Shown here: positions 9,321-26,078 of the stretch, one piece after another
Position numbering within the stretch: the stretch's first letter is position 1
Layout of the letters: each line of letters opens with the position of its first letter
Source of the DNA: a bacterium
Lineage (GTDB): Bacteria; Actinomycetota; Acidimicrobiia; Spongiisociales; Spongiisociaceae
Direction: 5' to 3'
Assembly: GCA_028821235.1 (NCBI GenBank)
Contig: JAPPGV010000089.1
Coordinates: 93,839-157,838 of the forward strand
Length of the DNA: 64,000 nucleotides
Position numbers and translations under genes: made by a program
The notes under the pieces: generated by a model
Told to the model about the DNA's origin: nothing
The model's database searches: none
The model's input: only the letters and a program-made list of their open reading frames with translations

Positions 9321-9535
9321 TCGTCCGCGCCGACATGGCGTCGATCGTCTGGCGGATCACCGTCGCCGAAGGCGAACGGGTGCGAGCCGGGCAGGAGCTC
9401 CTCATCCTCGAGTCGATGAAGATGGAGATGCCCGTCATTGCTCCGGTGGCCGGGACAGTGGTAAACATCCCGGTGGCGGAGGGAGACGTGATCGAGGCCG
9501 GTGACGCGCTGGTGCGGATCGAACGCAGCCGGTGA
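9317..9535 (+). CDS. stand-alone biotin carboxyl carrier protein (biotinyl domain, about 72 aa)
   Basis: GTG start overlapping the sucC-like stop (GTGA). Contains LILESMKMEMPVIAPVAGTV with the MKM biotinylation motif of biotin_lipoyl domains. The alternative ATG at 9335 is in frame. 4-nt overlap with the downstream gene. Confidence 0.7.
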   Translation: MIVRADMASIVWRITVAEGERVRAGQELLILESMKMEMPVIAPVAGTVVNIPVAEGDVIEAGDALVRIERSR

Positions 9536-10419: not shown

Positions 10420-10472
10420 AAAAGACGGGGTTTGGTTGGCCCGCGATGCCCCTACCTGGGGTTTTGTTTCCG
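10393..10472 (+). promoter_or_regulatory. conserved ~80-nt upstream element, copy B, in the leader of the carboxyltransferase gene
   Basis: cttgggagggtgctgaaaaagacggggtttggttggcccgcgatgcccctacctggggttttgtttccggctctcgggcc. The same blocks as copy A (aaagacg, ggttggcccgcgat, acctggg, ttt.gtt.ccgg, cgggcc) are conserved. It lies 63 nt before the GTG at 10536 and is followed by the ACCCT-cgt-AGGGT hairpin and the GGAGG SD. Its 5' end overlaps the last codons of the sucD-like gene. Confidence 0.5.
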
Positions 10473-10535
10473 GCTCTCGGGCCAACGGGACATTCTTCAG
10501 TACCCTCGTAGGGTCATGAGCAGGATGGAGGCGAA

Positions 10536-12092
10536 GTGATCTGGGACCCCGAACTCGAGGAGATGGAGCGCCGGAAGGTGTATGCGCTCTCGATGGGCGG
10601 GGAGGAGGCCGTGGCCCGCCAGCACGACGCCGGTCGGCTCACCGCCAGGGAGAGGCTCAGCCTACTGCTCGACGAGGGTACCTGGCAGGAGATCGGGACC
10701 TTCACCGGTGCGGCCACCTACGACGCGGAGGGCCGGCTCGTGACCGTGAAACCGGCCAACACCATCATCGGCACCGGCCGGGTCCGCGGTCGCCGGGTGG
10801 CCGTCGAAGCCGACGACTACACGATCAGGGGAGGTTCGACGGAAGCGCAGATCTCCGAGAAGTGGGAGTTCATCAACCGGTACGCATTGGAGATGCGGAT
10901 GCCGATGATCCGTCTCGTGGAGAATGTCGGCGGAAGTGTCCGCCTGCTCGAGAAGATGGGGCGGACCAAGATCCCCGGGTACCGCATGTGGCCCCTCGCC
11001 GGGATGCTCGGCTACGTACCTGTGGTGGCCCTGGTGCTAGGTCCGTCAGCAGGTCTCGGTCCTATGAAGGCCGCCAGCAGCCACTTCTCGGTGATGGTCC
11101 GCGGCACCAGCCAGGTGTTCGCCGCCGGCCCTCCGGTGGCGCGGGTCGCCCTGGGCCGGGACATCGATAAGGAGGAACTGGGAGGCGCCCACATCCACAC
11201 CGAGGAGAGCGGAGTCATCGATAACGCGACCGACTCGGAGGAGGAGGCGATCTGCCAGGCAAAGCGGTTCCTGTCGTACCTGCCGCAGAGTGTCTTCGAG
11301 TTGCCCCCCCGCCAACCCGGCGACGACTCTCCCGACCGCGCCGAGGACGAGTTGGCCTCGATCATCCCGCGGAATCAGCGCCGGGTCTACGACTCGCGGA
11401 GGCTCCTCTCGCTGGTCTTCGACCGCGGCACGCTCTTCGAGATCGCTCCCGCCTACGGACCTTCATCCATCACGATGCTGGCCCGCCTCAACGGTTATCC
11501 GGTCGGCGTGATCGCCAACGATCCCTACCGGTTCGGGGGCGGTCTGACCCGCGCCGCTGCAGAGAAGGTCGAGACTTTCGTGGATCTCTGTGACACCTTC
11601 CACGTTCCGATCGTGAACTTCGTGGACCAGCCCGGCACCGTGATCGGGCTGGAAGCCGAGCGCGAAGGGGCAGTGCGAGGGACCATCCGCCTCATCTCCG
11701 CCATCGAGCAGTCGCGGGTTCCGTGGTGCGGCATGATCGTGCGAAGGCTCTTCGGTCTGGCGGGCACCAGCTACGGTCGGCTGCAGGGCTTGAACCTTCA
11801 CTACGCCTGGCCGTCTGCCCGGTGGGGTTCCATCCCGATCCAGGGCGGGGTACGAGCCGCTTTCCGCCGGGAACTCGACGCCCTGCCACCAGACGAAGCG
11901 GCGGAAAGGCTTGCCCGGCTGGAGGAGCAATACGACGGGCTGTCGTCGCCGTTCCGGACGGCAGAGGCTTTTGGAGTGCCGGAGATCATCGACCCCCGCC
12001 GGACCAGGCCCATCCTGTGCCAATGGATCGAGGACGCCTATGCCGTGCTACCCGAGCAACTGGGGCCGACAGCCCGTACCATGCGCAGGTAG
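10536..12092 (+). CDS. acyl-CoA carboxyltransferase (PccB/AccD/12S transcarboxylase-like CT subunit)
   Basis: GTG start with GGAGG SD 5 nt upstream. N-terminal GGEEAVARQHDAGRLTARERLSLLLDEG is the classic propionyl-CoA carboxylase beta / methylmalonyl-CoA carboxyltransferase signature. 518 aa covers both CT halves. Confidence 0.9.
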   Translation: MIWDPELEEMERRKVYALSMGGEEAVARQHDAGRLTARERLSLLLDEGTWQEIGTFTGAATYDAEGRLVTVKPANTIIGTGRVRGRRVAVEADDYTIRGGSTEAQISEKWEFINRYALEMRMPMIRLVENVGGSVRLLEKMGRTKIPGYRMWPLAGMLGYVPVVALVLGPSAGLGPMKAASSHFSVMVRGTSQVFAAGPPVARVALGRDIDKEELGGAHIHTEESGVIDNATDSEEEAICQAKRFLSYLPQSVFELPPRQPGDDSPDRAEDELASIIPRNQRRVYDSRRLLSLVFDRGTLFEIAPAYGPSSITMLARLNGYPVGVIANDPYRFGGGLTRAAAEKVETFVDLCDTFHVPIVNFVDQPGTVIGLEAEREGAVRGTIRLISAIEQSRVPWCGMIVRRLFGLAGTSYGRLQGLNLHYAWPSARWGSIPIQGGVRAAFRRELDALPPDEAAERLARLEEQYDGLSSPFRTAEAFGVPEIIDPRRTRPILCQWIEDAYAVLPEQLGPTARTMRR

Positions 12093-12179: not shown

Positions 12180-13529
12180 GTGGCTGATCGGATCATCATC
12201 GAGAACGCTGCCATCGTGACGATGAACGAGGAGGACGATGTCATCTTCGACGGATCGATGGTCATCGAGGGCAACCGGTTAGTCGCCGTCGGAGGATCCG
12301 AGGCGGCGTCCGGATACGACCGCGCCACCGCGAAGGTCATCGACGCCGGCGGCAAAGCGGCGCTGCCGGGATTCGTCGACCTCCACTACCACACCGCCAT
12401 CGGAAAGGGCTACTGCGACCATCTGGATCTGTGGGAGATCCTGCAGGGGTTCTGGTATCCCATGATCCGGGCGATCAATCCCGAAGAGGCCTACTGGGCG
12501 GCCATGGCCAGTTACAGCGAGTCTCTGAAGGCCGGTGTCACCACCGCCAACGACATGTTCCGCCAACTCCCGGCCCTGGCGCGGGCGGCAGTCGACAGCG
12601 GGATCCGGGTGGTTCTCTCCAACGACATAGCCGACCCGGAGCACGACCTCGACGTGATCGAGGACAACGAATCGGCCTACCACGAGTGCCACGGGATGGG
12701 CGACGGGCGGGTGGAGGTCTACGTGGGTATCGAGTGGCTACCCCTCGCGTCCGAGCAACTGCTGGTGGACTGCCGGGCGCTGGCCGACCAGCTTGGGACC
12801 GGTATCCACATCCACCTGAACGAGTCCCTCGGCGAGGTCGAGATCTCCAAGCAGGCGTTCGGCGGCCGCCGGCCCACCGAGGTGGCATACGACACCGGGA
12901 TCCTGGGACCGGATTGCGTGGCCGCCCACTGCGTGCACCTATCGGACCGGGAGATCGGGCTCATGAGCGAGACAGGAACCCATATCTCCCACAACCCCAC
13001 CTCCAATGCCAAGCTCGGCAACGGTATCGCCCGGCTGCCCGAGATGCTGGAGGCAGGCCTCAACGTCGGCCTGGGCCACGACTCGGCGGAGGGAACCAAC
13101 AGTTGCGACCTGTTCCAGGTGATGAAGTGGGCGTCGTTGGTTCATCGGGCCGAGCGGAAGGACGCGTCGATCCTGCAGGCGCCCGCCATCCTGGGCATGG
13201 CGACCAGGAACGGCGCGCGTGCCCTCGGCCACGAGACGGGCGAGTTGAGCGTAGGAAAGGTGGCGGACGTGATCCTGGTCAACCTGCAGAACCACCACTT
13301 CACCCCTTGGGTGCCGGGCAACAAGATCCACCTCATGTCACACCTGGTCTACAGCGCGGAGAGCGCCGCGGTCGACACGACCATCGTGGACGGCACGGTG
13401 GTGATGGAAGGGCGCGAGTTCCTGGTCTTCGACGAGGAGGAGGTGCTGGCGAAGGCGACCGAGAGCTTCTTCACCTGCATCGACCGGATGGAGGTCCCCG
13501 AGGAGTACGCCGGGCTTCTCGATCGCTAG
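12180..13529 (+). CDS. amidohydrolase, TRZ/ATZ family (guanine/MTA-deaminase, chlorohydrolase-like)
   Basis: GTG start with GAGGAG SD. MADRIIIENAAIVTMNEE, LPGFVDLHYHTAIG (HxH), HIHLNES, GHD and VADVILV motifs characteristic of TRZ/ATZ-family amidohydrolases (MtaD/SsnA/AtzA-like). Confidence 0.85.
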   Translation: MADRIIIENAAIVTMNEEDDVIFDGSMVIEGNRLVAVGGSEAASGYDRATAKVIDAGGKAALPGFVDLHYHTAIGKGYCDHLDLWEILQGFWYPMIRAINPEEAYWAAMASYSESLKAGVTTANDMFRQLPALARAAVDSGIRVVLSNDIADPEHDLDVIEDNESAYHECHGMGDGRVEVYVGIEWLPLASEQLLVDCRALADQLGTGIHIHLNESLGEVEISKQAFGGRRPTEVAYDTGILGPDCVAAHCVHLSDREIGLMSETGTHISHNPTSNAKLGNGIARLPEMLEAGLNVGLGHDSAEGTNSCDLFQVMKWASLVHRAERKDASILQAPAILGMATRNGARALGHETGELSVGKVADVILVNLQNHHFTPWVPGNKIHLMSHLVYSAESAAVDTTIVDGTVVMEGREFLVFDEEEVLAKATESFFTCIDRMEVPEEYAGLLDR

Positions 13530-13603: not shown

Positions 13604-14038
13604 CTAGCCATCTGGCGTTTCCACTAGTTCCACGAGCAGGCCGTCGAACTCGCGGGGGTGGACGAATGCGATCATCGTGCCCATCCCGCCGGGACGGGGC
13701 TGCTCGTCGATGAGTTGAACGCCCACGCTGGCGAGCCGCCGGAGGCATTCCCCGATGTCCTCCACCTCGAAGGCGATGTGGTGGAGAGCGGAGCCGCGCT
13801 TGTCTACGAACTTGCCTACGACCCCGGGGCCGGTCGCTTCGAGGGTCTGGACGAAGCCGTCCCCGACCGGGAGCATCCTCTCGGTGAATCCCGGTCCGTC
13901 CTCCTCGTGGCAGACCGGAACGCCCAGCAGCTCAGCGAACCGTTCGTGTGGCGCAGACGTCGGGGTGTGCGCGAAGGCGACATGGTGGATCCTGAGCAGC
14001 GGCGGCCACCACGGGGAAGGGGTCGGTTCCTGGACCAT
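13604..14038 (-). CDS. VOC/glyoxalase-family protein, methylmalonyl-CoA epimerase-like
   Basis: Start at internal Met MVQEPTPSPWWPPLLRIHHVAFAH (ATG 14036-14038), overlapping the stop of the upstream LLM gene (TAATG). HHVAF...LHHIAFEVEDI...VQLID motifs resemble methylmalonyl-CoA epimerase. The rest of the 447-aa track ORF is low-complexity. Confidence 0.65.
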   Translation of the reverse strand: MVQEPTPSPWWPPLLRIHHVAFAHTPTSAPHERFAELLGVPVCHEEDGPGFTERMLPVGDGFVQTLEATGPGVVGKFVDKRGSALHHIAFEVEDIGECLRRLASVGVQLIDEQPRPGGMGTMIAFVHPREFDGLLVELVETPDG

Positions 14039-15021
14039 TACAGGCGGGAGAAGACCCTGGAGAACGCCTCGACGGTCTCCCGGCGCCGGGAACCGAGCGG
14101 GAACACCGTCACCGAATCCACTCCCAGGTCGGCCAGGGTCCGGAGGTGGGCCATCGCTTGGTCGCTGTCGCCGGCGAAGGCCATCTTCTCGACGAATTCC
14201 CGGGGCATGATCGAAGCCGCGGCGAGTGCCTCCTGGAACTCGCCTCCTGCATACCGAGCCTTGACGTCGGCCGAGATGGCGGGGTCCAGACCGGCCAACT
14301 CGCAGTAGACCGGCGCGGTCTGGGGGAACCAGGCGGCGATCGAGCGGGCCGCCTGCAGGGCGCCGGCGGGATCGTCGTCGTCTATCGCTCCGTAGCCGAA
14401 GACGGACACGTGGGGGCGGGACCGGCCTGCTCGCTCGGCGCCCCGGTCGATGTGCTCCAACCCGTAGGCGACCCCGTCCCGGAACAGGCCGCCCAGGAAG
14501 ATGACCCCGTCGGCGATCTCGCCGGCCAACTCCAGGGTCTTGGGTCCGCTCGCCGAGATGAACACCGGGATCCGGTATGAGGCTTCGAACCGAAGGTGGG
14601 CGTCGTCCATAGTGAACCCAGCCCCTTCGTAGGTGACGTGTTCGCCGGCAAGGAGCCGGCGGATAACCTCGATCGACTGGCGCATCTCCAGGAGCCGGGC
14701 GGGCCGCAGGCCGAGGGAGCGGAGCGGGCGATCGCCCGCTCCGATACCGAGGACCGTCCTTCCCGGCGCCAACTCCTCGAGGCTGGCTGCATTGACGGCC
14801 ACGATGCCGGGATGGCGGGTCTGCGGGTTGGTCACCGCGGTTCCCAGCACCATGCGGGTGGTCAACCTCGCCGCCAGCGTCAGGTGCATGTAGGGGTTTC
14901 GGGTGTGGAGGGAGGAGTCGGTGAGCCAGAGGTAGTCGTACCCGCACCGGTCGACTACCCGGACCATGTCCTCGAATACGTGGGGAGGGTAACGACCCTG
15001 TAGGGCTACACCGGTCTGCAT
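14038..15021 (-). CDS. LLM-class flavin/F420-dependent oxidoreductase (luciferase-like monooxygenase family)
   Basis: Start at internal Met MQTGVALQGRYPPHVFEDMVRVVDRCGYDYLWLTDS (ATG 15019-15021, AGGAAGG SD upstream), 4 nt after the stop of the M20 gene. TIM-barrel LLM motifs are present. The track N-terminal 135 codons are spurious. Confidence 0.75.
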   Translation of the reverse strand: MQTGVALQGRYPPHVFEDMVRVVDRCGYDYLWLTDSSLHTRNPYMHLTLAARLTTRMVLGTAVTNPQTRHPGIVAVNAASLEELAPGRTVLGIGAGDRPLRSLGLRPARLLEMRQSIEVIRRLLAGEHVTYEGAGFTMDDAHLRFEASYRIPVFISASGPKTLELAGEIADGVIFLGGLFRDGVAYGLEHIDRGAERAGRSRPHVSVFGYGAIDDDDPAGALQAARSIAAWFPQTAPVYCELAGLDPAISADVKARYAGGEFQEALAAASIMPREFVEKMAFAGDSDQAMAHLRTLADLGVDSVTVFPLGSRRRETVEAFSRVFSRL

Positions 15022-15025
15022 ACGG

Positions 15026-16117
15026 TCATCCTGCCTTCCTGTCGTAGCGGAGGATGGTATCGGCCAGCGCGGCGAGTCCGGTTCCGATCGGTTCGGTCTC
15101 GATCCACTCCCCGGGTGTGTGCTCGCCGGATCCGAACGTGATGCCGATGGTGACCGCCGGAATGCCGGCCGCGTAGGCGGCGTTGGCGTCAGTGCTGGCT
15201 GCGACGTGCGCCGCATCGATCCCGACCGCGGCCAGGGCGGCGTCGGCGGCCGCCACCAGAGGATGCGTCTCCGGGATCGACCCGGCAGGCCGCTTGCCCA
15301 GTTCCTGGTAGGTCGCCGCCAGCTGTGACTCGGCCTCCACCACGCGGCGCGCCGAGGCATCGAGGTGGTCAAGGACCTCCGGGTCGGCGGAGCGGATGTC
15401 GACCCGCAGCGCTGCGCGGCGGGCACGAGCGTTGATCGACTCGCCCCCCTCGATGTGTCCTACGTTGAGCGAGCACCGGGCTCGGGACCTGGCGTCCGGC
15501 AGGAGATGTTCCAGGCCCACGATGATCCTCGCCAGGTCGTGGATGGCGCTGGGCGCGTCAGCAGCCTCCCAGGCGTGCCCTCCCGGACCCTCGAGTTCGA
15601 CCAGCCGGCGGACCGACCCGACACCCACCGTCGCCACCCGTCCGAGGTAGTTGCCCTCCAGCGCGATGAACGCGCTCATCCCGGCCGGAGGATGCTCCAC
15701 GAGGTGGAGTGCTCCGGCGAGGTTGCCTAGGCCCTCCTCGCCGGTGGTGGCCGCTATCCACACCGGCCGCGACAGGTCCTCCGGCAGGAGGCGGTCGAGC
15801 AGTGACAGGGCAGCGATGGCCACGGTGTTATCACCGACCCCGACACCATGGAGACGGCCGTCCCGCTGCTCGGTCCCATGGGGGATGTCCCGGCCGAAAA
15901 CCGTGTCGAGGTGGGCGGCCACGAACGTTGCCGGACCTTCTCCCGCACGGAGTCGGGCGACAACGTTTCCCGCCCGGTCGACCTGCGGCCGTAGCCCGTC
16001 CGCGCGCCACCACCGTTCTACGACGGTTACCCGGTCGGCCTCGTCAAGAGGAGGCCCGGGGACTGCTGCCAGCTCGACGGTCCGTGCGAGGATGACCGCG
16101 GCTGCATCTTCGGTCAT
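15026..16117 (-). CDS. M20 family metallopeptidase/amidohydrolase (ArgE/DapE/CPG2-like)
   Basis: 363 aa. HLDTV, GVGDN (His/Asp metal ligands) and EEG motifs of M20 peptidases. Stop overlaps the CoA-transferase start (ATGA). Confidence 0.8.
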   Translation of the reverse strand: MTEDAAAVILARTVELAAVPGPPLDEADRVTVVERWWRADGLRPQVDRAGNVVARLRAGEGPATFVAAHLDTVFGRDIPHGTEQRDGRLHGVGVGDNTVAIAALSLLDRLLPEDLSRPVWIAATTGEEGLGNLAGALHLVEHPPAGMSAFIALEGNYLGRVATVGVGSVRRLVELEGPGGHAWEAADAPSAIHDLARIIVGLEHLLPDARSRARCSLNVGHIEGGESINARARRAALRVDIRSADPEVLDHLDASARRVVEAESQLAATYQELGKRPAGSIPETHPLVAAADAALAAVGIDAAHVAASTDANAAYAAGIPAVTIGITFGSGEHTPGEWIETEPIGTGLAALADTILRYDRKAG

Positions 16118-17322
16118 CCCGGCTCGGCCGCCATCCCGCTTGCGAAGAGCGCATCGATGTAGGCGGGCTCCATACCGGCCTCGAGCAGTGACTCCCGCGT
16201 GTGCTGGCCGAGGAGGGGCGCAGGCCGGGGGATCGGCAAGGGTTCACGGTCGATCCGGAGCGGCAGGCCGATCGCAGGGTAGGGGCCCGCCGTGTCGTGC
16301 TCCAGCGTCTGTACCGAGCCGAGTGCCCGAGCCTGGGACCCGTCCAGTACCCCGCCGATGTCGTTGATACGGTCCGCCGGTACCTGAGCCTCTGCGAACA
16401 GGGTCAGCCACTCGGCTACGTCCTTCCGGGTGGTGATCGACTCGATCTCGGCGGTCAGTTCGTCACGAGCCGCCACCCGGGAGGCGTTGTCGGCGAAGCG
16501 AGGGTCTTCTACCAGGTGCGATGCGCCGAGCGTCTCGCAGAAGCGGCGCCAGATTGCCTCCGATCCGGCGCCGGCGGCCACGAAGTGCCCGTCGCGGGCG
16601 CGGAATGCTCCGTAAGGGGCGAAGGTGGGGGAGTGGCTGCCCAGCAGGCCGGGCACCTCGCCGTTCACGAGGTACGGCGTCGCTACCGTGGCCAGCGCGG
16701 CCAGCGAGAACTCGAGCAGCGAGGTGGAGACCTGGCGCCCGAGGCCGGTTCGTTCCCGCTCGGCCAGCGCGGCGAGCACCCCGACCACGCAGGCGAGCCC
16801 AGCTCCGATGTCGGTGACCGGGACGCCGATCTTGGCGGGCCCGGTCGCTTCATGCCCCGTGACGCTCATCAGGCCGCCGGAGGCCTGGAGAATGAGATCG
16901 AACCCACCCTTCCCGGCGTCGGGACCCACGTCTCCGAAGCCGGAGACCGACCCGTAGACCAGGGAGGGAAACCGGGCGTGGACCGCGGGGTAGTCGAGCC
17001 CGTACTTGGCGAGGCTTCCGGGCCGTCCGTTTTCCAGCAGGACATCCGCGGAGGCCAGGAGCCCATCCATCGCGGGGCGGGCATCCTCTGCTCGGAAGTC
17101 GAGAGCGACGCTCTTCTTGGCGCTGTTGAGGGTCATGAACAGCACCGATTGGTCCCCCACGCGCGCGGTTCCCTGGTTCCGGTAGGGGTCTCCACCGGCC
17201 GGGCCCTCGATCTTGAGAACCTCCGCGCCCAGGGTCGCCAGAATGAAGGAGGCATACGCTCCCGAGACGAACCTGGTCAGATCGACAACTCGGATGCCGT
17301 CCAGCATGCCGTTGCCGGTCAC
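16114..17322 (-). CDS. CoA-transferase family III protein (CaiB/BaiF/Frc-like)
   Basis: 402 aa. N-terminal MLDGIRVVDLTRFVSGAYASFILATLGAEV is the family III CoA-transferase signature. Start overlaps the stop of the mutase gene (ATGA). Confidence 0.85.
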   Translation of the reverse strand: MTGNGMLDGIRVVDLTRFVSGAYASFILATLGAEVLKIEGPAGGDPYRNQGTARVGDQSVLFMTLNSAKKSVALDFRAEDARPAMDGLLASADVLLENGRPGSLAKYGLDYPAVHARFPSLVYGSVSGFGDVGPDAGKGGFDLILQASGGLMSVTGHEATGPAKIGVPVTDIGAGLACVVGVLAALAERERTGLGRQVSTSLLEFSLAALATVATPYLVNGEVPGLLGSHSPTFAPYGAFRARDGHFVAAGAGSEAIWRRFCETLGASHLVEDPRFADNASRVAARDELTAEIESITTRKDVAEWLTLFAEAQVPADRINDIGGVLDGSQARALGSVQTLEHDTAGPYPAIGLPLRIDREPLPIPRPAPLLGQHTRESLLEAGMEPAYIDALFASGMAAEPG

Positions 17323-18911
17323 CAGGGACTCGGTTCCCGGAACTCTCCGTACTCGTTCCTCATCATGTCGCTCATCTCGCCGAGCGTCCCTCCGGCCCTC
17401 GCGCAGTCCATGATCGGGGGCATGACGTTGGTTCCGGTGCGCAAGGCCTCGCGCAGGGCCGCGAGCGTCGTCCTGGCTGCAGACTCGTCACGGGTGGCCC
17501 TTCTTCGTTCCGTGCGAGCGATCTGGAGTTCCCCGATCTTGGGATCCAGGGTGAACAGCCGCGGCTCGTGTTGTGCCAGCGCGTCGTCCACGTAGCGGTT
17601 CACGCCCACCCGGACCCTCGATCCGTCGGCGATCTCCCGCTCCGTCCGGTAGGCCTCAGCGGCTATCCACCGCTGGGGTGTACCCGACTCGAGCGCCGCG
17701 ACCGCTCCCCCCAGTTCCTCCACGGCGGCCATGATCTCGCGAGCCCGGCGTTCCACCTCGCTGGTGAGCCATTCGACGTAGTAGGAGCCCGCCAGGGCGT
17801 CGACCGTGTCGGCGACCCCGGACTCGTGTGCCACGATCTGCTGTGTCCTCAGGGAGAGCGTGACGGCCTCCTCGGTGGGAAGCTCGTAGGCCTCGTCATA
17901 GCCCATCACGTGTACGGACTGGGCGCCGCCCAGCACCGCGCCCAGGCACTGGATGGTCGAGCGGATGATGTTGTTGAGAGGCTGCGCGGCGGTGAGGGTG
18001 GTACCCGAGTTACCGGAGAAGAAGCGGAGCCGTGCGGAGCGGGGATCCTTGGCGCCGAAGCGGGTAGTGGCCGTGTCGTACCAGAGTCGCCGGGCCGCCC
18101 TCAGCTTGGCGACCTCCTCGAACAGGTTCATCGTGGTGGCGAAGTGGAAGGAGAACCGGGGCGCGAAGGAGTCGAAGGACAATCCTCGGGCCAGCAGTTC
18201 CTCCGCATATGCGATGGCGGATGACATGGTCAGGCCCAGTTCCTGGACGGCATTGCATCCGGCCTCTCTGGCGTGGTACCCGGTTATGGAGATCGGGTTG
18301 AACCGGGGCAGGTGTTCGGACGACCATTCCACGATGTCCGCCACGAGCCGCATCGATGCGGCCGGAGGGAAGATGAACGCCTTGCGGGCCAGGAACTCCT
18401 TGAGCAGGTCGTTCTGGAGCGTCCCCGAGAGGTCCGCGTAGGACGCGCCCTGGCGCTCGGCCGTCACCAGGTAGAACGCCAGGATGATCGGCGCCGTGGC
18501 ATTGATGGTGAAGTTCACCGAGAGCTTGTCGAGGGGCAGACCGTCGAACAACGCGGCCATGTCGTCGGCGGTATCGACAGCCACCCCCACCCGGCCGACT
18601 TCGGCGCGGGCCATGGGATGCGACGAGTCGTAGCCGAGCTGGGTGGGCAGGTCGAAGGCCACCGAGAGCGCCGTCTGGCCCTGTTCCAGCAGGAAGCGGA
18701 AGCGGTCGTTGGCGTCCTCGGCGCTGCCGTACCCTGCGAACTGGCGCATCGTCCACAGGCGCCCGCGGTACATCGTCTCGTACGGGCCCCTGGTGAAGGG
18801 AGGGTGGCCGGGGAGGCCCAGATGGTCCCCGGGCCGGAACCCCCCGACATCGTCCTGCGTGTATAGGGGAGCGACCGGGATGCCCGAGTCGGTACGGCGA
18901 TCGCCGGTCAT
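17319..18911 (-). CDS. acyl-CoA mutase large (substrate-binding) subunit, B12-domain-less (IcmA/HcmA/split-MCM type)
   Basis: 530 aa. PGHPPFTRGPYETMYRGRLWTMRQFAGYG..A...NDRF..LL..GQTALSVAFDLPTQLGYDSSH matches the methylmalonyl-CoA mutase catalytic domain. No C-terminal cobalamin-binding domain. ATGA overlap with the upstream small subunit. Confidence 0.85.
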   Translation of the reverse strand: MTGDRRTDSGIPVAPLYTQDDVGGFRPGDHLGLPGHPPFTRGPYETMYRGRLWTMRQFAGYGSAEDANDRFRFLLEQGQTALSVAFDLPTQLGYDSSHPMARAEVGRVGVAVDTADDMAALFDGLPLDKLSVNFTINATAPIILAFYLVTAERQGASYADLSGTLQNDLLKEFLARKAFIFPPAASMRLVADIVEWSSEHLPRFNPISITGYHAREAGCNAVQELGLTMSSAIAYAEELLARGLSFDSFAPRFSFHFATTMNLFEEVAKLRAARRLWYDTATTRFGAKDPRSARLRFFSGNSGTTLTAAQPLNNIIRSTIQCLGAVLGGAQSVHVMGYDEAYELPTEEAVTLSLRTQQIVAHESGVADTVDALAGSYYVEWLTSEVERRAREIMAAVEELGGAVAALESGTPQRWIAAEAYRTEREIADGSRVRVGVNRYVDDALAQHEPRLFTLDPKIGELQIARTERRRATRDESAARTTLAALREALRTGTNVMPPIMDCARAGGTLGEMSDMMRNEYGEFREPSPW

Positions 18912-19312
18912 GGCGCGACGCCGGCGGAGGCCTCACGGAACATCCCGTTCACCACCTCATCCAGGGGGGATCCGACCGGGAACACTCGGGAGATCCCGAT
19001 CCCCCGCAGCGCGTCGGCGTCCGCTTCGGGAATGGTCCCGCCGATGACGATCGGAACGCCAGCGATTCCGGCCTTGCCTCGTTCCTCCACCAGTTGGCGG
19101 CCCAGGGCGAGGTGGGCTCCGGACAGCACCGAAATGCCGATCACGTCGGCGCTCTCCTCGATCGCCGCGGTGATGATCTGCTCCGGTGATTGCCTGAGGC
19201 CGAGAAAGATCACTTCGGCGCCGGCATCCCGGAGGGCCATCGCGATGACCTTCACGCCGCGGTCGTGGCCGTCGAGACCGGGCTTGGCCAGGAGGATCCG
19301 GGGCCTTTTCAC
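18908..19312 (-). CDS. acyl-CoA mutase small subunit, cobalamin (B12)-binding domain
   Basis: GTG start (GGGGAG SD) overlapping the upstream stop (GTGA). 134 aa. LAKPGLDGHDRGVKVIAMALRDAGAEVIFLG...VIGISVLSGAHL matches the DxHxxG B12-binding motif of MCM/IcmB/HcmB. Confidence 0.8.
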   Translation of the reverse strand: MKRPRILLAKPGLDGHDRGVKVIAMALRDAGAEVIFLGLRQSPEQIITAAIEESADVIGISVLSGAHLALGRQLVEERGKAGIAGVPIVIGGTIPEADADALRGIGISRVFPVGSPLDEVVNGMFREASAGVAP

Positions 19313-20271
19313 TCCGTCAACTCCCCGTCGCTGATCACCACCTCGCCGTCGATCTCGAGGGTGGCGGCCGCCATCACGCAGTCGAGATGGGCGGTTGCGT
19401 CGACCGTCCCTCCGTAGGCGATGGAGTTGCCGAGGGCTATGTGGGCCGTCCCCAGCGCCGACTCGGTCTCCATGGGGACCCCGCAGATGGTTCCGAGCGG
19501 GTTTAGGCCCATGGAGACCTCGGCGAGGTTGCTCATCCGGTCGTCGTCACATCGAGCGATCATCTCGAGGAGCCGGTTCCGGTGGGTGCCCTCCACACCC
19601 ACCATCCGTCCGTCCTCAAAGTGCATCACGACCGGCTCGGGAAGGGGTCCTCTGCCCATGAAGAGCAGGTCGCCGTCGATCACGGCAACTCCGGAGGTGG
19701 TTTCCTCGACCGGCGCGGTGCCGGCCTCGATGTCGGGTGGCGCCATGTACTGGCCGTCGGCCCGGGCGATCCCGTCCAGCACGCGTCCGGCCCTGTTCTC
19801 GATCGAGCCTCGCAGATCGGTCCCGGCGGGGCTGGTGAGCCTGAACCCGGACCCGCGATCCCAAGCGGTTCCCACCTTGACGGCGACGGCACGCTGGGAG
19901 TCGAAGTCGACCGTCAGGGGGCCTCCGGAGCGGAATGTGCCCAACTCGACGCCGGGCATCGCCAGGTACCTGACCCCGGCCGCCGAGGCGCGCTGACGGG
20001 CCCGGCTCGATCCGATGAACAGGCTGGTCAGCTCGATGGCGGCGCCGGCCGATAGGAGGGCGGCGGCCACCGCCGCGGGTGGCTCGGCACCCGGAATGAA
20101 GGGCATCCGCATGGCGGCAATGACAGGGACGGCCCTCCGGGACGACACCCCATCCACGAGCCCGGCCACGACCTGCGCGTCCGTGCCCTCGTCGGTCAGC
20201 AGCAGAACCTCCTCACCCGGCCGTATTCGCAGGCACGAGTCGAGCACGGTGTCGAAACCCGGGTACTTCAT
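19309..20271 (-). CDS. aminopeptidase-T (M29)/NicX-like family protein, function uncertain
   Basis: Real start at internal MKYPGFDTVLDS (ATG 20269-20271), overlapping the M20 stop (ATGA). The upstream 228 codons of the track ORF are Arg/Gly-rich junk. Weak resemblance to the COG2309 (aminopeptidase T / 2,5-dihydroxypyridine dioxygenase) family. Call is tentative. Confidence 0.45.
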   Translation of the reverse strand: MKYPGFDTVLDSCLRIRPGEEVLLLTDEGTDAQVVAGLVDGVSSRRAVPVIAAMRMPFIPGAEPPAAVAAALLSAGAAIELTSLFIGSSRARQRASAAGVRYLAMPGVELGTFRSGGPLTVDFDSQRAVAVKVGTAWDRGSGFRLTSPAGTDLRGSIENRAGRVLDGIARADGQYMAPPDIEAGTAPVEETTSGVAVIDGDLLFMGRGPLPEPVVMHFEDGRMVGVEGTHRNRLLEMIARCDDDRMSNLAEVSMGLNPLGTICGVPMETESALGTAHIALGNSIAYGGTVDATAHLDCVMAAATLEIDGEVVISDGELTE

Positions 20272-21458
20272 GCCGAGAGAGCCAATGCTGCGAACGCGGC
20301 GTAAACCTTGGCGGCGTCGTGTATGTCGGGGACGGAGAGGTTCTCGTCGGCCGCGTAGACGGGTTCCCCACCCGGACCGAAGATCACCGTCTCGACCAGC
20401 GGCCCGAAGCTGGAGGTGTCGCCCAGCCAGCCCTCGACCCGCAGCGACGGCTCCTGTCCCGGCCGCGCCGCCCGGACAGCCTCCATCATCAGGGTCACCA
20501 CATCGGACTCCCGATCCACGAGATGGCCGGGCTTCTCGTCGGCGAGCACCACCTCGGCTCTGAACCGGGGGTCCCTTTCCGCCGCTGCGGCCAGGGCACG
20601 GTCGATCTCGGCCCGGACTGTCGCCTTGCTGACACCCGGCTGGGGCCGGCAGTCGACCCGGATCACGCACTCGTCGGGGATCATGGACGGGCCGCCCGGG
20701 GGTAACCCGCCGTAGATCCGGCCGGGGGACATGAACGTCTCGCTGCCGAACATCTCCGCCACCCAGGGCTCCAGTTGAGGCTCCAGCCGGGAGGCGTCCA
20801 ACTCGATGACCGCCAGCGCGGCCAGGTAGTTGGCGTTCACGGCGTCGTACTTGTGGCAGGTGTGGGCGGAGCGTCCGTAGACATGGATGTCGAAGTAGTA
20901 CCGGCCCCGATGGCCCAGGCAGATAGTGCTCTCGCTCAACTCTCCCAGAACGCACAGGTCGGCCGGGTGGGCCTCGAAGTATGCGATCGACCCCCGCTGG
21001 TCCCCCATGTGGTCCGACACCGCCGCGAAGGCGGCTGTCCCGGAGAGCGGGAGGCCGGCCTTCCTGAGTCCTGCCAGCGCCGCGATCTGGCAGGCCAGGG
21101 CCCCCTTCATGTCCATGATCCCGTGGCCGTACACGCGGTCGTTGACGAAGTCGCCCGAGTACGGTTCGGCAACCGTCCAGCCATGCGAGACCGGCTTGGT
21201 GTCGAGGTGGCCGGTGAGCACCACCCTCCGGCCCGGACCGAACGAGAGCTCCCCGATCGCGTTGGGCCGGTTGGCCAGGACGGGCTGGAGTTTCACCTTC
21301 TCGAACCCGAGATCCCCGAGCGTGCCGGCGATGAACGCCGCCAGGGGTCCCTCCTCGCCCAGGACGCTCGGGATGCGCGACACCTCCCGGCAGAGCTCGA
21401 CGGCCAGATCGAGGTCCACTGATTTGATCGCCGTCCGCGCTATCGCGTCAGCGCCCAC
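20268..21458 (-). CDS. M20 family metallopeptidase/amidohydrolase (second copy)
   Basis: 396 aa. GHLDTKPV, GHGIMDMKGA and HRGR motifs of the ArgE/DapE/ACY1 family. Confidence 0.8.
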   Translation of the reverse strand: MGADAIARTAIKSVDLDLAVELCREVSRIPSVLGEEGPLAAFIAGTLGDLGFEKVKLQPVLANRPNAIGELSFGPGRRVVLTGHLDTKPVSHGWTVAEPYSGDFVNDRVYGHGIMDMKGALACQIAALAGLRKAGLPLSGTAAFAAVSDHMGDQRGSIAYFEAHPADLCVLGELSESTICLGHRGRYYFDIHVYGRSAHTCHKYDAVNANYLAALAVIELDASRLEPQLEPWVAEMFGSETFMSPGRIYGGLPPGGPSMIPDECVIRVDCRPQPGVSKATVRAEIDRALAAAAERDPRFRAEVVLADEKPGHLVDRESDVVTLMMEAVRAARPGQEPSLRVEGWLGDTSSFGPLVETVIFGPGGEPVYAADENLSVPDIHDAAKVYAAFAALALSA

Positions 21459-21491
21459 CCGTCTCCTCTCTCGCCGGCAGACCGCTTCGGA

Positions 21492-22352
21492 TCATCCGGA
21501 CGACGGGTCTTCGAGTGGCAAGGAAGGGTCATTCGCCCACTCGCCCATCGAGGCGTCGTAGATCGAAACCTGCTCGACACCGAGGAGGGAAAGAGCGAAG
21601 GCCGTGCTGGCGGCGGAGATGCCGCCTCCGCAGTAGGCGATCTTCCGGCTGGACCCGGTCTCGAGTGCGGGGGCGGCCCGGCTTCGCAGTTCGTCGATGC
21701 CTGCATAGGCGTGGGTGTCGTGATCGACGAGGGAACCGGCCGGTACGTTGACGGCGGTCGGGATGTGGCCGCGACGCTGGTAGAACTGAATCGTTCCGTT
21801 GTAGTGGGCCGCCGGCAGGGCGTCGACTATGGCGACGTCTTCGTCCTCGATAGCAGCGAGCACCTCCTCCTTTCCGACGAAAGTGCCCGGTCGGGGCCGG
21901 ACAGTGAATGCGGCCCTCGGATGCCGCGGCGCAGGATCACTGGTTACACGCCGGCCCTCCGACTTCCAGCGCCTAAGCCCGCCATCGAGGACCCCGGCCT
22001 CGTCGAAGCCCATGGAGTGGAGCATCCACCACACCCTGGTGGCCCACATGTTGATGTCGAAGTCGTACAGGACGACCCTCGTTCCCTCGCCGACGCCGAC
22101 CGACTCCATGACGGACACGAACTGATCGGTGGACGGCATCATGAACAGGGCTTCCGCGGTCTGGTCGGCCAGTTCGGTCATGAGATCGACATGGACACTT
22201 CCCGGTATGTGCTCCCGATCCCATCTGGGCCTGCCGCTCTCGATGTTGAGCACGCCGCCCGGCCTCTCGAAGACCACCGAGCAGTCGAGGATGCGTAGAT
22301 CGGAGGCCGACCTGTTCTCTTCTAGCCAGCCTGGTTGTACGAGCTTCTCCAC
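21492..22352 (-). CDS. rhodanese-domain sulfurtransferase (thiosulfate/3-mercaptopyruvate sulfurtransferase-like, two rhodanese domains)
   Basis: Start reassigned to GTG at 22350-22352 (MEKLVQPGWLEEN...), which has a strong AAGGAGG SD 6 nt upstream. The track's upstream ATG adds an Arg-rich leader. EHIPGSV and the catalytic CGGGISA Cys loop are present. Confidence 0.8.
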   Translation of the reverse strand: MEKLVQPGWLEENRSASDLRILDCSVVFERPGGVLNIESGRPRWDREHIPGSVHVDLMTELADQTAEALFMMPSTDQFVSVMESVGVGEGTRVVLYDFDINMWATRVWWMLHSMGFDEAGVLDGGLRRWKSEGRRVTSDPAPRHPRAAFTVRPRPGTFVGKEEVLAAIEDEDVAIVDALPAAHYNGTIQFYQRRGHIPTAVNVPAGSLVDHDTHAYAGIDELRSRAAPALETGSSRKIAYCGGGISAASTAFALSLLGVEQVSIYDASMGEWANDPSLPLEDPSSG

Positions 22353-22455
22353 CCCGAGCCTCCTTGTCCGCGGTCGTCCGGAACGATAGATGATCACCCT
22401 GTCGGGTGTCCGCGCGTACTCAGCCCGCCGAGCCAACCGGCGGCGCGGCCTCGGG

Positions 22456-23973
22456 TCAGCGCGAGATGCCCTGTCCCTGGGTCGGGATCACCGCCTCCGT
22501 GTCTATCCAGATCGACTTGGGCTGGAGGTACGCGTCCAGCGCCTCCTCGCCCAGTTCACGTCCCCCGAAGCCCGACATCTTCTGGCCGCCGAACGGAACG
22601 GCGACGTCGAACATGCCGTAGGTGTTGATCCACACCGTGCCGGCGCGCACCGCGTTTGCGAACTTCAGCGCCTTGTTGACGTCGGATGTCCACACCCCGG
22701 CCGCGAGTCCATAGCTTACGTCGTTGGCCAGCGAGATGAGTTCGTCCCAATCGGAGAACCGCAGGATCGACACCACGGGTCCGAAGATCTCCTCCTGGGC
22801 CACTGTCATGTCGTTGGTCACCCGGTCGATCACCGTCGGCTCCAGGAAGTACCCGCCCTCTAGACCCTCCACGTTGGCGTCCCGCCCGCCCGCCACGACG
22901 TCGGCGCCTTCGTCGCCGGCGACGGTGACGAATCCTCTCACCGTCTCCCGGTGGGACGCCGAGACCAGCGGGCCCATCTGGGAGTCGGGGTTCAGACCCT
23001 GGCCGAGGCGCACGCCCTTGGCCTTCTCGGTCAGTTCCTCGGCGAACTCGTCGGCGATCGAGTCCTCCACGAACAGCCGGGATCCGGCCACGCAGGCCTG
23101 GCCCTGGTTGAAGAACGCTCCTCCGAACGCGCCCGCCATGGCGGCTTCCCGGTGGGCGTCCGCGAAGACCACGTTGGGGTTCTTCCCACCCAGCTCCAGC
23201 GAAACACGTTTGAGGGAGGGAATGGCCTGCCTGAGGATCTCCTGGCCGGTACTGGTCTGACCGGTGAAGGCCACCTTGTCGATCCCCGGATGGGACACGA
23301 GCGCTCCTCCGACCTCGGGACCGGGACCGGTCACGATGTTGATCACTCCCGGCGGGATCCCGGCCTCGTTCACCAGTTCCGCGAAGCGCAGTGTGGTGAG
23401 CGGCGTCCAGGTGGCAGGTTTCCCGACGACGGTGCAGCCGGCTGCCAGCGCCGGTCCGAGCTTGTAGATGATCTCGAGCAGCGGGAAGTTCCAGGGTGCT
23501 ATGGCCGCCACGACGCCGATCGGCTCCCGCTTGCGAATGCTGACCAACCCGGGAATGCTGTTCGGGAGCAGGTCACCGTGGATCTTGGTGGCCCAACCCG
23601 CGTAGTAGCGGAGGATCTCGATCGACAGGGCGATGTCGACCAACTCCGCCTCCCACAGGGGCTTTCCGTTGTCGAGAACCTCGAGCACGGCGAACTCGTC
23701 CTTGTGCTCGTCCAGCAGGTCGCCCAGACCCCAGATGAGCCGCTGGCGCTCCGTGGGCGCCATGTCGCGCCAACCGTTCTCGAAGGCATGCGCCGCCGCC
23801 TCCACGGCCTGGTCGACCTGGTCCGGGCCGGCGACCGGTATCTCGGCCAGTACTTCGCCGGTGGCGGGGTCGGTCGTCTCGAAAGTATCGACTCCGTCCA
23901 CCCATTCGCCGCCGATGAAGAGGCGCTTGGGTCGGGTCAGGAAGTCGAGGCTGGGGCGTTCTATCACGGTCAT
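22456..23973 (-). CDS. NAD(P)-dependent aldehyde dehydrogenase
   Basis: 505 aa. ELGGKNP and FFNQGQACVAGSR (catalytic Cys) ALDH signatures. Confidence 0.9.
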   Translation of the reverse strand: MTVIERPSLDFLTRPKRLFIGGEWVDGVDTFETTDPATGEVLAEIPVAGPDQVDQAVEAAAHAFENGWRDMAPTERQRLIWGLGDLLDEHKDEFAVLEVLDNGKPLWEAELVDIALSIEILRYYAGWATKIHGDLLPNSIPGLVSIRKREPIGVVAAIAPWNFPLLEIIYKLGPALAAGCTVVGKPATWTPLTTLRFAELVNEAGIPPGVINIVTGPGPEVGGALVSHPGIDKVAFTGQTSTGQEILRQAIPSLKRVSLELGGKNPNVVFADAHREAAMAGAFGGAFFNQGQACVAGSRLFVEDSIADEFAEELTEKAKGVRLGQGLNPDSQMGPLVSASHRETVRGFVTVAGDEGADVVAGGRDANVEGLEGGYFLEPTVIDRVTNDMTVAQEEIFGPVVSILRFSDWDELISLANDVSYGLAAGVWTSDVNKALKFANAVRAGTVWINTYGMFDVAVPFGGQKMSGFGGRELGEEALDAYLQPKSIWIDTEAVIPTQGQGISR

Positions 23974-23991
23974 GTTCCGGTTGCTCCCCTC

Positions 23992-25026
23992 TCAGGCCAG
24001 GGTGAGGATCTGGCGGCCGAGCACCCGCCGTTGCCTCAGGTTCTCCAGTGCTTCGCCCGCTCCGTCGAGCGGGTAGGTGGCGGCAACCGGTACCGAGATG
24101 TGCCCGCCCGCGGCCAGGCGGATGGCGTCGGCCAGGTCGCGGACCGTGGCGGCGACGGTTGAGACCCAGACGGTCTCGGGCAGGATGAACTCGATCGGAT
24201 GTACCTCCAGCGACTCGCCGGTGTACCCGGTGGAAACGAACCGACCGTGCTTGGCCAGGGAGCGGAGGCCGGCCAGCATGGTCTTGGTCGTTCCGACCAG
24301 CTCGAAGAAGAGGTCGGTGCCACGGCCTCCCGTCAACTCACGGATCCGGTCGGGCAGGTCTTCGTAGCCCGCGGCGTCCGGCACTACGACCCCTCCGGAG
24401 GCGCCGTACGACTTGGCCATCTCCAGCTTGTCCTCGGTATCGGCGACGGCGAGGACCCGGGCGCCGGCCAGGACGGCGACCTGGAGGACCATCGAGCCGA
24501 CCCCGCCGATACCGTTCACCACGGCCGTCTCACCGACGCTCATGTTCGAGAGATGGGCGGCGTGGACCGCGGTCATACCGGCACATGCCAGGACGGAGGC
24601 GGTTCCGAAGTCCACGTTGTCGGGAAGCGCCACCAGGTTGCGGGCCGGAGCGGTGATGTACTCCGCATACCCTCCGTCCAGGTTGAAGCCGAACTGCCCG
24701 GGCTCGTTGTCGCAGATGTTCTGGCGACCGACCAGGCACTGCTCGCACGCGCCGCAGAAGATCTTGTTGTAGACAGCCACCCGGTCGCCGACCGACACGG
24801 TCGATCCGTAGCCGACCTCGACCACGACTCCGGCCGCCTCATGTCCCACGGTCATCGGGTACTCGTCAGGCTGGATCATCCCTTCGAGAACATGCAGATC
24901 GGTGGCGCACACCCCCGCCGCATGGAGCCGGACCAAGGCCTCGCCGGGTCCCGGAGATCGTCTCTCCACATCGTTCACGTTCAGGCTCAGGTCTTCGTGA
25001 ACCTGCGCGGCCTTCATCGTTGGCAT
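23992..25026 (-). CDS. zinc-dependent alcohol dehydrogenase (MDR family)
   Basis: 344 aa. GVCATDLH, GHEAAGVVVEVG and GIGGVGS Rossmann motifs. GGAGGT SD 8 nt upstream of the ATG at 25026. Confidence 0.9.
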   Translation of the reverse strand: MPTMKAAQVHEDLSLNVNDVERRSPGPGEALVRLHAAGVCATDLHVLEGMIQPDEYPMTVGHEAAGVVVEVGYGSTVSVGDRVAVYNKIFCGACEQCLVGRQNICDNEPGQFGFNLDGGYAEYITAPARNLVALPDNVDFGTASVLACAGMTAVHAAHLSNMSVGETAVVNGIGGVGSMVLQVAVLAGARVLAVADTEDKLEMAKSYGASGGVVVPDAAGYEDLPDRIRELTGGRGTDLFFELVGTTKTMLAGLRSLAKHGRFVSTGYTGESLEVHPIEFILPETVWVSTVAATVRDLADAIRLAAGGHISVPVAATYPLDGAGEALENLRQRRVLGRQILTLA

Positions 25027-25556: not shown

Positions 25557-26078
25557 TCAGGCCAGTTCTATGTTCAGCGGTACCGGGTTACTCAGCGTGT
25601 GTCCGACCGGGGAGCTGTTGACGACCTTGTCGTGGAGGGCGGCAAGCTGCTCCTCCGTGGCATCGGAGTCCAGGTGGACCTTCACCGACAGGCCTCCGTA
25701 GCCGGCGTGGCCGGGCTTCAGACCCAGGAAGGTATGCAGGTCCAGATCGCCGCTGACTTCGATCTTGAGGTCGTTGATCTCCACTCCGGCCGCCGTAGCG
25801 TTGGCGGCGTATCCGACCGCCAAGCAATTGCCGAGCGCTCCGAGCACCTGCTCCGCCGGATTGGGGGCGGTGTCGGTGCCGCCGAGTCCGGCCGGCTCGT
25901 CGGAGGGGATCGGGTCAAAGTCCCGGATCGAGACCTCTGAGCGGAAGGCGCCCGTCCAGTTCACGGTGGCCTGCCATTCGGTCTGGCCCTGCTCCGGGTC
26001 GTCCGCCACGGCGGCGACCAGGGCGCCGACCGCCTGCAGGTCTACGTCGTTGAGTTGCTGTTCGGTCTTGGTAGTCAT
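25557..26078 (-). CDS. OsmC/Ohr family peroxiredoxin-like protein
   Basis: 173 aa. OsmC-fold pattern with paired Cys (GNCLAVGY ... SSPVGHT). Confidence 0.8.
   Translation of the reverse strand: MTTKTEQQLNDVDLQAVGALVAAVADDPEQGQTEWQATVNWTGAFRSEVSIRDFDPIPSDEPAGLGGTDTAPNPAEQVLGALGNCLAVGYAANATAAGVEINDLKIEVSGDLDLHTFLGLKPGHAGYGGLSVKVHLDSDATEEQLAALHDKVVNSSPVGHTLSNPVPLNIELA

Follow-up and report, generated by a model that had tools for sequence, protein, structure and literature searches.

The 64,000-nucleotide stretch of actinobacterial DNA analysed here (the window; contig JAPPGV010000089.1 of assembly GCA_028821235.1, positions 93,839 to 157,838; part of the 189.5-kb metagenomic scaffold_125 of ENA ERZ23495471; G+C content approximately 67%) carries on its minus strand an operon of eleven genes, running from 25026 down to 13604, that includes a split cobalamin-dependent acyl-CoA mutase. 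As far as can be judged from sequence, this enzyme represents a new and sharply bounded variant of the acyl-CoA mutases, and it belongs to a conserved gene cluster that is apparently undescribed. There is about an even chance that the operon is one form of a widely conserved actinobacterial gene cluster that serves to break down a 5-substituted 4-aminopyrimidine, likeliest the hydroxymethylpyrimidine (HMP) of thiamine or the corresponding carboxylate, 2-methyl-4-amino-5-pyrimidinecarboxylate (PCA). Few specificities are known for acyl-CoA mutases, a small group of radical enzymes, and each new specificity has revealed both a pathway and a biocatalyst; the remodelled active site of the present mutase, together with its invariant genomic context, makes it a concrete target for expression.

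Active-site signature of the mutase

The mutase consists of a 134-aa cobalamin-binding small subunit (18908-19312; Pfam B12-binding, PF02310, 7.6e-26), which contains the sequence DGHDRG (motif DxHxxG), and a 530-aa large subunit (17319-18911; Pfam MM_CoA_mutase, PF01642, 1.3e-198) without a B12 domain, in agreement with the split architecture recognized in a first-pass annotation of this DNA. The small subunit scores 137 bits against TIGR00640, above the cut-off of 57. The large subunit reaches 568.3 bits against the methylmalonyl-CoA mutase (MCM) equivalog NF006944, below the cut-off of 876, and passes an NCBIfam cut-off solely for a generic N-terminal-domain model. Its best solved relative is HcmA, the large subunit of 2-hydroxyisobutyryl-CoA mutase (Hcm; 4R3U, 513 bits), with human MCM at 439 bits.

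The active-site signature was derived from an alignment of the window protein with HcmA, human MCM, MutB of Propionibacterium shermanii, the 120 best database matches and 80 genomic loci, in P. shermanii MCM numbering fixed via 5REQ, which is the sequence of the Y89F mutant. Ala116, Gln197, Arg207, Tyr243-His244 and Glu370 are kept as in MCM, and Phe occupies position 89 of the window protein and of 113 of the 120 best matches (Tyr in 7). In the window protein and the whole of its clade, His328-x-Gln330-Thr331 is replaced by Phe-Ser-Gly-Asn, and the clade also has Val-Met for Thr365-Asn366 and His for Phe287. The residues equivalent to His328, Gln330 and Asn366, which are retained in every MCM, split MCM, isobutyryl-CoA mutase (Icm) and Hcm sequence compared, are Phe298, Gly300 and Met336 of the window protein. 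Seventeen positions of the large subunit are diagnostic of the clade, among them H328F, Q330G, T331N, N366M and F287H, and the 120 best matches (68-95% identity) all have Phe or Tyr at position 89, Arg207 and the F-S-G-N sequence.

Beyond these, 77 genomic loci at approximately 50% identity are Icm-type (F89, Q207, HxQT, HTN), and canonical split MCMs (Y, R, HTQT, HTN) form separate lineages at 47-48% identity (P0126 and P0128); when a library of 1.84 billion proteins, clustered at 50%, was searched exhaustively with HMMER, full-length identity outside the clade was at most 51% among the top matches examined. The clade is thus sharply separated, its members being at least 68% identical and all other sequences at most approximately 51%, and by these comparisons the window mutase belongs to a distinct clade that is neither housekeeping MCM, nor Icm, nor Hcm. 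The clade is probably not orthologous to ethylmalonyl-CoA mutase (Ecm) either, judging from its identity of at most 51% to those full-length members of the 50% library that the search listed, although it may be a sister group of Ecm. No member of the clade was found among 72,556 plasmid records. The first-pass annotation had assigned the large subunit to the Icm, Hcm or archaeal MCM type; inspection of the substrate-specificity residues replaces that assignment with a different active-site signature, and the protein does not group with the housekeeping MCMs of some unrelated locus but falls in a clade of its own that was never encountered outside a hydrolase-rich gene cluster.

The clade resembles MCM, including the split archaeal-type McmA/McmB, in combining a PF01642 large subunit with a separate DxHxxG subunit and in retaining Arg207, Gln197, Tyr243-His244 and Glu370, and the adjacent epimerase-like protein of the vicinal oxygen chelate (VOC) family and succinate-type CoA-transferase are also reminiscent of MCM modules; unlike MCM, it has Phe89, Phe-Ser-Gly-Asn, Val-Met and His287 and is at most approximately 47-51% identical to any MCM, the window protein scores below the equivalog cut-off, and the window encodes no MeaB. 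HcmAB, the best-scoring solved relative, is split in the same manner and in its own pathway likewise follows alcohol- and aldehyde-oxidising steps, but the Ile90, Asp117 and Gln208 of Hcm are Phe, Ala and Arg here, and Hcm keeps HCQT and HTN. IcmAB is also split and likewise has Phe in place of Tyr89, and the genomic sequences that come closest to the clade without belonging to it are of this type, but Icm has Gln207, HxQT and HTN in place of the Arg207 of the clade. In the biochemistry of MCM and Icm, Arg207 marks a substrate with a free carboxylate, so its retention implies a carboxylate-bearing substrate, and given the roles ascribed to MCM residues 328, 330 and 366, the remodelling of this region implies a substrate other than plain methylmalonyl-CoA.

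The same survey contained other mutase lineages (P0121, P0127, P0129, P0144, P0153 and P0158) that have Arg207 without His328-x-Gln330-Thr, with replacement motifs such as F-A-G-G-N-G or a run of five Gly, and that carry generic names only; some are fused to an N-terminal or C-terminal B12 domain. With many such non-canonical Arg207 lineages still uncharacterised, the substrate diversity of acyl-CoA mutases looks much under-sampled.

Operon structure and conserved gene order

According to the open reading frame (ORF) listing and Pfam scans, the eleven co-directional minus-strand genes encode, in order of transcription, a Zn-dependent alcohol dehydrogenase (ADH; 23992-25026, 344 aa, ADH_N and ADH_zinc_N); an NAD(P)-dependent aldehyde dehydrogenase (ALDH; 22456-23973, 505 aa, Aldedh, 3.7e-174); a two-domain rhodanese resembling 3-mercaptopyruvate sulfurtransferase (21492-22352, 286 aa, Rhodanese in two stretches); an ArgE/DapE-type M20 amidohydrolase (M20a; 20268-21458, 396 aa, Peptidase_M20 and M20_dimer); a NicX/M29-like metalloenzyme (19309-20271, 320 aa, precomputed Pfam match to NicX, PF26233, and a weak M29 match); the two mutase subunits; a family III CoA-transferase (16114-17322 or -17307, CoA_transf_3, 7.3e-116); a second M20 amidohydrolase (M20b; 15026-16117, 363 aa, Peptidase_M20 and M20_dimer); an F420-type, Mer-like luciferase-like oxidoreductase (LLM; 14038-15021, 327 aa, Bac_luciferase); and, as the last gene, the VOC protein resembling methylmalonyl-CoA epimerase (13604-14038, 144 aa, Glyoxalase_4). 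The block and its protein families agree with the first-pass annotation, as do the overlaps of 1-4 nt that it listed at six junctions, which were read directly as ATGA at 20268-20271, GTGA at 19309-19312, ATGA at 18908-18911, GTGA at 17319-17322, ATGA at 16114-16117 and TAATG at 14036-14040; such overlapping junctions are consistent with the translational coupling it proposed.

The other gaps include 18 nt between ADH and ALDH, 33 nt between the rhodanese and M20a genes and 4 nt between M20b and LLM, and gaps over the whole operon span -4 to 103 nt. The spacing of 3-35 nt given earlier therefore holds for most junctions but probably not for that between ALDH and rhodanese: AAGGAGG lies 6 nt before a GTG at 22352, the public gene call has the identical start, and this GTG is most likely the true one, making the gap 103 nt, not the 19 nt that would follow from the alternative TTG start at 22436. 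The overlap of the CoA-transferase gene with the mutase gene also depends on the start codon, requiring GTG 17322 (402 aa), whereas the public call of ATG 17307 (397 aa) leaves an 11-nt gap; the GTG start is plausible because homologues of 400-402 aa overlap the mutase stop. Terminator-like sites between 13000 and 26700 number 2 (one per strand) versus 4.3 expected from shuffled sequences, with no excess, and no signal for intrinsic termination falls within the block. With its genes co-directional, its junctions short or overlapping and its terminator-like sites not above the shuffle expectation, the block is predicted to be a single operon, and its arrangement is not due to chance, because the core order recurs in 88 independent loci. 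No MeaB/ArgK domain was found in any Pfam-scanned ORF of the window (all sizeable ORFs), as the first-pass annotation had also stated of the chaperone.

None of the operon proteins scores above an NCBIfam equivalog cut-off, so that their functions are indicated at the level of family. The ADH matches no equivalog at cut-off; its orthologues (51-87% identity) are found in the cluster at 13 of the 17 loci with at least 7 kb of downstream sequence, and ALDH orthologues (64-70% identity) come after ADH in L004, L084, L085 and L086. The rhodanese scores 144.7 bits against the 3-mercaptopyruvate sulfurtransferase model (cut-off 250). M20a has deacylase-type NCBIfam matches (TIGR01910, 140.8 bits, below cut-off), and M20b matches deacetylases and carbamoylases weakly. 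The CoA-transferase covers positions 1-366 of the 366-position CoA_transf_3 model, and the named families it most resembles are succinate-glutarate CoA-transferase (282 bits, below cut-off) and succinate-hydroxymethylglutarate CoA-transferase (9br7, 6.5e-65), which indicates a dicarboxylate (SUGCT-like) type, not a particular substrate. The LLM protein is closest to F420-dependent methylene-tetrahydromethanopterin reductase (185 bits, below cut-off; Mer structure 8qq8, 1.1e-44). For the VOC protein the best match is the methylmalonyl-CoA epimerase model TIGR03081, which upholds its earlier description as epimerase-like even though the score of 91.7 bits lies below the cut-off of 114.95.

The NicX-like protein is only weakly similar to NicX of known structure (7cn3, 8.5e-4, 21.6 bits). 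Its Glu251, His295 and Asp297, invariant in 39 homologues, align with the residues that bind iron in NicX, His265, His318 and Asp320, the first ligand being different, a pattern that would fit an M29-like hydrolase equally well as a NicX dioxygenase. Loci without the NicX-like gene (L083, L106, L112, L119 and L164) have an extra upstream Amidohydro_1 gene of the ATZ/TRZ type, which hints that the protein is no dioxygenase but a hydrolase for which an amidohydrolase can substitute.

The closest genomic relatives of the window are metagenome-assembled genomes of Acidimicrobiia (L002, OY760694.1, and L003, OZ241390.1, with 89% and 83% mutase identity, respectively). The three clade genomes found first share the order M20, NicX-like, B12 subunit, mutase, CoA-transferase, (M20), LLM and VOC, the bracketed M20b being missing from L002 and L003. 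The core is the same in five more clade members (approximately 70% identity, long contigs, precomputed Pfam), three of which also have an ABC transporter with a substrate-binding protein (SBP) of the NMT1/THI5-like family, two TENA_THI-4 genes, a GntR/FCD regulator, and orthologues of the ADH, ALDH and Amidohydro_1 genes found in the window. Scanning metagenomes for the clade motifs RLRFFSGN and GAQS[IV]HVM yielded 217 relatives and 80 loci, and synteny was counted over 88 clade loci, using for each gene only those with enough flanking sequence. On this basis M20a is retained in 37 of 37 loci, the NicX-like gene in 39 of 46, the B12 subunit in 64 of 67, the CoA-transferase (after the mutase) in 62 of 63, M20b in 35 of 43 and LLM in 33 of 33; the VOC gene lies in the cluster, on either side of the core, at 11 of the 12 loci with both flanks. 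Where at least 5.5 kb upstream is available (n=29), a ThiY-like SBP is present in 17 loci, TenA in 13 and rhodanese in 7; the 17 loci that extend at least 7 kb downstream include ADH and GntR in 13 cases each, TenA and Amidohydro_1 in 12 each and ALDH in 8. Rhodanese-bearing loci are mainly variants without TenA and ThiY. The window represents a variant with ADH, ALDH and rhodanese in front, an inverted ATZ/TRZ amidohydrolase gene and no TenA or ThiY, as do L002, L088 and L089.

The ATZ/TRZ-type amidohydrolase of the window (12180-13529, plus strand, 449 aa, Amidohydro_1) is convergent on the operon. In NCBIfam it comes closest to N-ethylammeline chlorohydrolase and 5'-deoxyadenosine deaminase, reaching the cut-off of neither, and its orthologues (59-66% identity) follow ADH and ALDH co-directionally in L004, L083, L084 and L086. 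It is proposed to be functionally part of the cluster, as a putative 4-aminopyrimidine deaminase. In L083 a second B12-binding small subunit (152 aa) is encoded at positions 1-1301, a few kb from the mutase cluster, next to a gene for a fusion of ATP-grasp, citrate-synthase-N and CoA-ligase domains.

The genes that accompany the core elsewhere bring in thiamine. The best solved relative of the ThiY-like SBP is ThiY (3IX1, 1.5e-35, 126 bits), which binds FAMP (N-formyl-4-amino-5-aminomethyl-2-methylpyrimidine). The TenA homologue, which matches that of Bacillus subtilis with an E-value of 1e-25, retains the catalytic Cys of a Cys-type thiaminase II, and loci often have two copies of TenA. Nine TenA/ThiY loci, 149 kb in all, gave no Rfam match to a thiamine pyrophosphate (TPP) riboswitch, and the gene lists of such loci contain no ThiD, ThiE or ThiM Pfam domains. 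GntR/FCD regulators are typical of catabolic operons, and with such a regulator present and these riboswitches and domains absent, catabolism fits better than cofactor salvage. Taken together, the conserved ThiY-like, TenA, ATZ/TRZ deaminase and GntR neighbours suggest catabolism of an aminopyrimidine, namely the pyrimidine of thiamine. PCA is a microbial oxidation product of thiamine, the metabolic fate of which was stated to be unknown in 2024 (PMC11223231), and literature searches found no published gene cluster for thiamine or HMP catabolism and no link between TenA and a CoA mutase.

Proposed pathway and rival explanations

The chemistry of the route, as inferred from the gene families, could be as follows. 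Where present, TenA and an M20 enzyme would deliver HMP from FAMP or from the aminomethylpyrimidine AmMP. ADH and ALDH would oxidize the 5-hydroxymethyl group by way of the 5-formyl to the 5-carboxyl, converting HMP to PCA; the ATZ/TRZ amidohydrolase would strip off the 4-amino group; and the F420-type LLM protein would act as a ring or C=N reductase. The NicX/M29-like protein (a putative ring or amidine hydrolase), M20a (a candidate deacylase, deformylase or amidine hydrolase) and accessory amidohydrolases would then open the ring and remove N1-C2-N3, leaving a branched C4 remnant (C4, C5, C6 and the C5 side-chain carbon C7) that would be a malonate substituted at C2, such as (N-acyl)aminomethylmalonate. 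Its CoA ester would be formed by the family III CoA-transferase of the dicarboxylate type, the epimerase-like VOC protein would set the C2 configuration of the ester, and the B12 mutase would move the thioester carbon, as from methylmalonyl-CoA to succinyl-CoA, to give a linear 2-substituted succinyl-CoA of the aspartyl, N-acylaspartyl or malyl type, with the CoA-transferase recycling CoA and M20b taking off any residual N-acyl group. The remodelled positions 328, 330, 331, 365, 366 and 287 would presumably admit the extra substituent on the migrating carbon while Arg207 holds the carboxylate. A skeleton-linearising mutase would be needed because the pyrimidine remnant is branched, and the route employs every conserved gene.

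The mutase substrate within this route is a guess. That the enzyme catalyses a new B12-dependent rearrangement, from (N-acyl)aminomethyl- or hydroxymethyl-malonyl-CoA to an aspartyl- or malyl-type CoA ester, in what would be the first genetically defined pathway of HMP/PCA mineralisation, is accordingly put forward as a tentative possibility. If the thiamine-pyrimidine reading is true, the cluster would provide the genes, hitherto missing, with which microbes degrade the pyrimidine of vitamin B1, and would identify a sink for the vitamers HMP, AmMP, FAMP and PCA that organisms trade in soils and waters.

Two known systems offer partial precedents. In anaerobic indoleacetate degradation, the benzylmalonyl/phenylsuccinyl-CoA mutase IaaGH works with the family III CoA-transferase IaaL, so that an N-heterocycle is hydrolytically opened to a substituted succinate or malonate, which is activated by CoA transfer and rearranged with B12 (PMC8360864); the likeness is one of pathway logic, and the heterocycle and host phylum differ, with no acyl-CoA dehydrogenase following in the present cluster. 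In the route of FAMP salvage through YlmB and TenA, the FAMP deformylase YlmB is M20-related (PMC10470507). Like the ThiXYZ-YlmB-TenA system, loci related to the window place a ThiY-like SBP with ABC partners, a Cys-type TenA and an M20 gene directly beside the mutase core; unlike it, the window has no ThiY or TenA, there is no TPP riboswitch, thiD or thiE, and the accompanying genes are for oxidation, deamination and the rearrangement of CoA esters, implying degradation.

Several points weigh against the thiamine-pyrimidine reading. Neither a TenA nor a ThiY-like gene was found in the 64-kb window by tblastn, so that the pyrimidine link rests here on orthology of the core; the neighbouring ABC transporter is of the ferric-iron FbpA type; and TenA and ThiY are missing from approximately one third to one half of the loci with adequate flanks. 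The route leaves the rhodanese without a role, the substituted malonate could simply be decarboxylated, and environmental levels of thiamine pyrimidines are low for a nutritional pathway.

The same pathway logic could also serve a different, more abundant heterocycle, such as 5-hydroxymethylcytosine, 5-hydroxymethyluracil, a 5-carboxyuracil-type or bacimethrin-like compound or another amino-N-heteroaromatic, with TenA and the ThiY-like protein recruited for a related 5-(X-methyl)-4-aminopyrimidine. Gene content cannot separate a C2-methyl from a C2-oxo ring, M20b being weakly carbamoylase-type and M20a deacylase-type; some clusters contain Amidohydro_2 genes, a family that includes isoorotate decarboxylase; the clade is common in metagenomes; and the likeness to ThiY is at the level of family. 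The window and its closest relatives, lacking TenA and ThiY, are as this alternative would have them. It nevertheless seems rather unlikely: the best solved match of the SBP is FAMP-binding ThiY, ahead of other NMT1-family proteins, and TenA is a Cys-type thiaminase II, commonly in two copies per locus. Salvage or repair of the thiamine pyrimidine back to HMP, rather than its mineralisation, would draw on a ThiXYZ-like transporter, an M20 enzyme (perhaps YlmB-like) and TenA, which are parts of the FAMP salvage route (PMC10470507), but salvage has no use for the B12 mutase, the CoA-transferase, the epimerase, the ALDH or the several deaminases or amidohydrolases, nine loci are free of TPP riboswitches, thiD, thiE and thiM are missing from the gene lists nearby, and the GntR/FCD regulators are of the catabolic-operon type, all of which makes this explanation very improbable.

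The first-pass annotation favoured yet another explanation, a joint route to succinyl-CoA with the convergent sucC-BCCP-sucD-CT operon described below. In the form considered here, an ordinary module of MCM, epimerase and CoA-transferase would convert propionyl- or methylmalonyl-type CoA esters to succinyl-CoA and the hydrolases and dehydrogenases would just feed it. The retention of Arg207, Gln197, Tyr243-His244, Glu370 and Ala116, the Tyr89 of a minority of the clade, the VOC match to methylmalonyl-CoA epimerase, the succinate/dicarboxylate type of the CoA-transferase and the mmdA or propionyl-CoA-carboxylase-beta type of the carboxyltransferase are all compatible with it. It is improbable all the same, given the equivalog score of 568 versus 876 bits, the change of His328, Gln330 and Asn366 to Phe, Gly and Met, the separate lineages (47-48%) of canonical split MCMs, the confinement of the clade to hydrolase-rich clusters and the lack of MeaB in the window. 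Moreover, the supposed partner operon has no biotin carboxylase, and of approximately 36 long loci just two, the window and L002, have it beside the mutase cluster, so that a joint route is not supported.

Flanking genes in the window

The sucC-BCCP-sucD-CT operon (8172-12092, plus strand, identified with Pfam and NCBIfam) encodes a sucC-like ATP-grasp protein, a 72-aa biotin carboxyl carrier protein (BCCP), a sucD-like protein and a carboxyltransferase (CT), the latter far below cut-off for its best match. An ADP-forming CoA ligase and a carboxyltransferase make an odd pairing. On account of its restricted distribution the operon was rejected as a core partner of the mutase cluster; the carboxyltransferase gene alone lies near the cluster in L162 and L164. 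It is regarded as a lineage-specific neighbour, the product of which possibly decarboxylates or transcarboxylates a substituted malonyl-CoA.

Farther to the left lies a dense block made up largely of C-N hydrolase genes on both strands, in which Pfam identifies an Amidohydro_1 gene (298-2184, minus strand), an Amidohydro_2 gene (2151-3152, plus), a short-chain dehydrogenase/reductase gene (3244-4023, minus), a gene for an amidase signature enzyme (4084-5526, plus), a second Amidohydro_2 gene (5572-6540, minus) and a second Amidohydro_1 gene (6543-8159, minus). Both Amidohydro_2 genes and the amidohydrolase gene at 6543 have homologues (47-65% identity) inside the mutase cluster of L082, L083 and L085, and the functional island is therefore larger than the eleven-gene operon.

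Upstream of the operon, an S-adenosylmethionine riboswitch (SAM-I, RF00162; 26360-26442, minus strand, 69.3 bits) is followed by a 40-codon Cys-rich ORF (26292-26170, minus) and an OsmC-like gene (25557-26078, minus; NCBIfam 'OsmC-related (seleno)protein' domain), an unusual member of a SAM-I regulon. Control of the operon by this riboswitch is unlikely, since it precedes the OsmC-like gene, after which there is a 530-nt gap, and neither the riboswitch nor the OsmC-like gene is found beside the mutase cluster in L002 or L003. No cobalamin or TPP riboswitch was detected upstream of the operon or in the related loci searched. The next genes (26565-29148, minus strand) encode a fused two-domain ABC permease (535 aa) and a ferric-iron binding protein of the FbpA/HitA type (7w3w, 2e-76); no ATPase gene for this system was identified in the stretch from 29.2 to 30.6 kb. 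The possibility that it is a ThiBPQ thiamine importer was rejected, as the NCBIfam matches are weak and of the aminoethylphosphonate (AEP) type and the SBP is a homologue of FbpA/HitA. Beyond it lies a plus-strand gene (30618-32981) for a 787-aa S13 D-Ala-D-Ala carboxypeptidase with an S-layer-homology domain.

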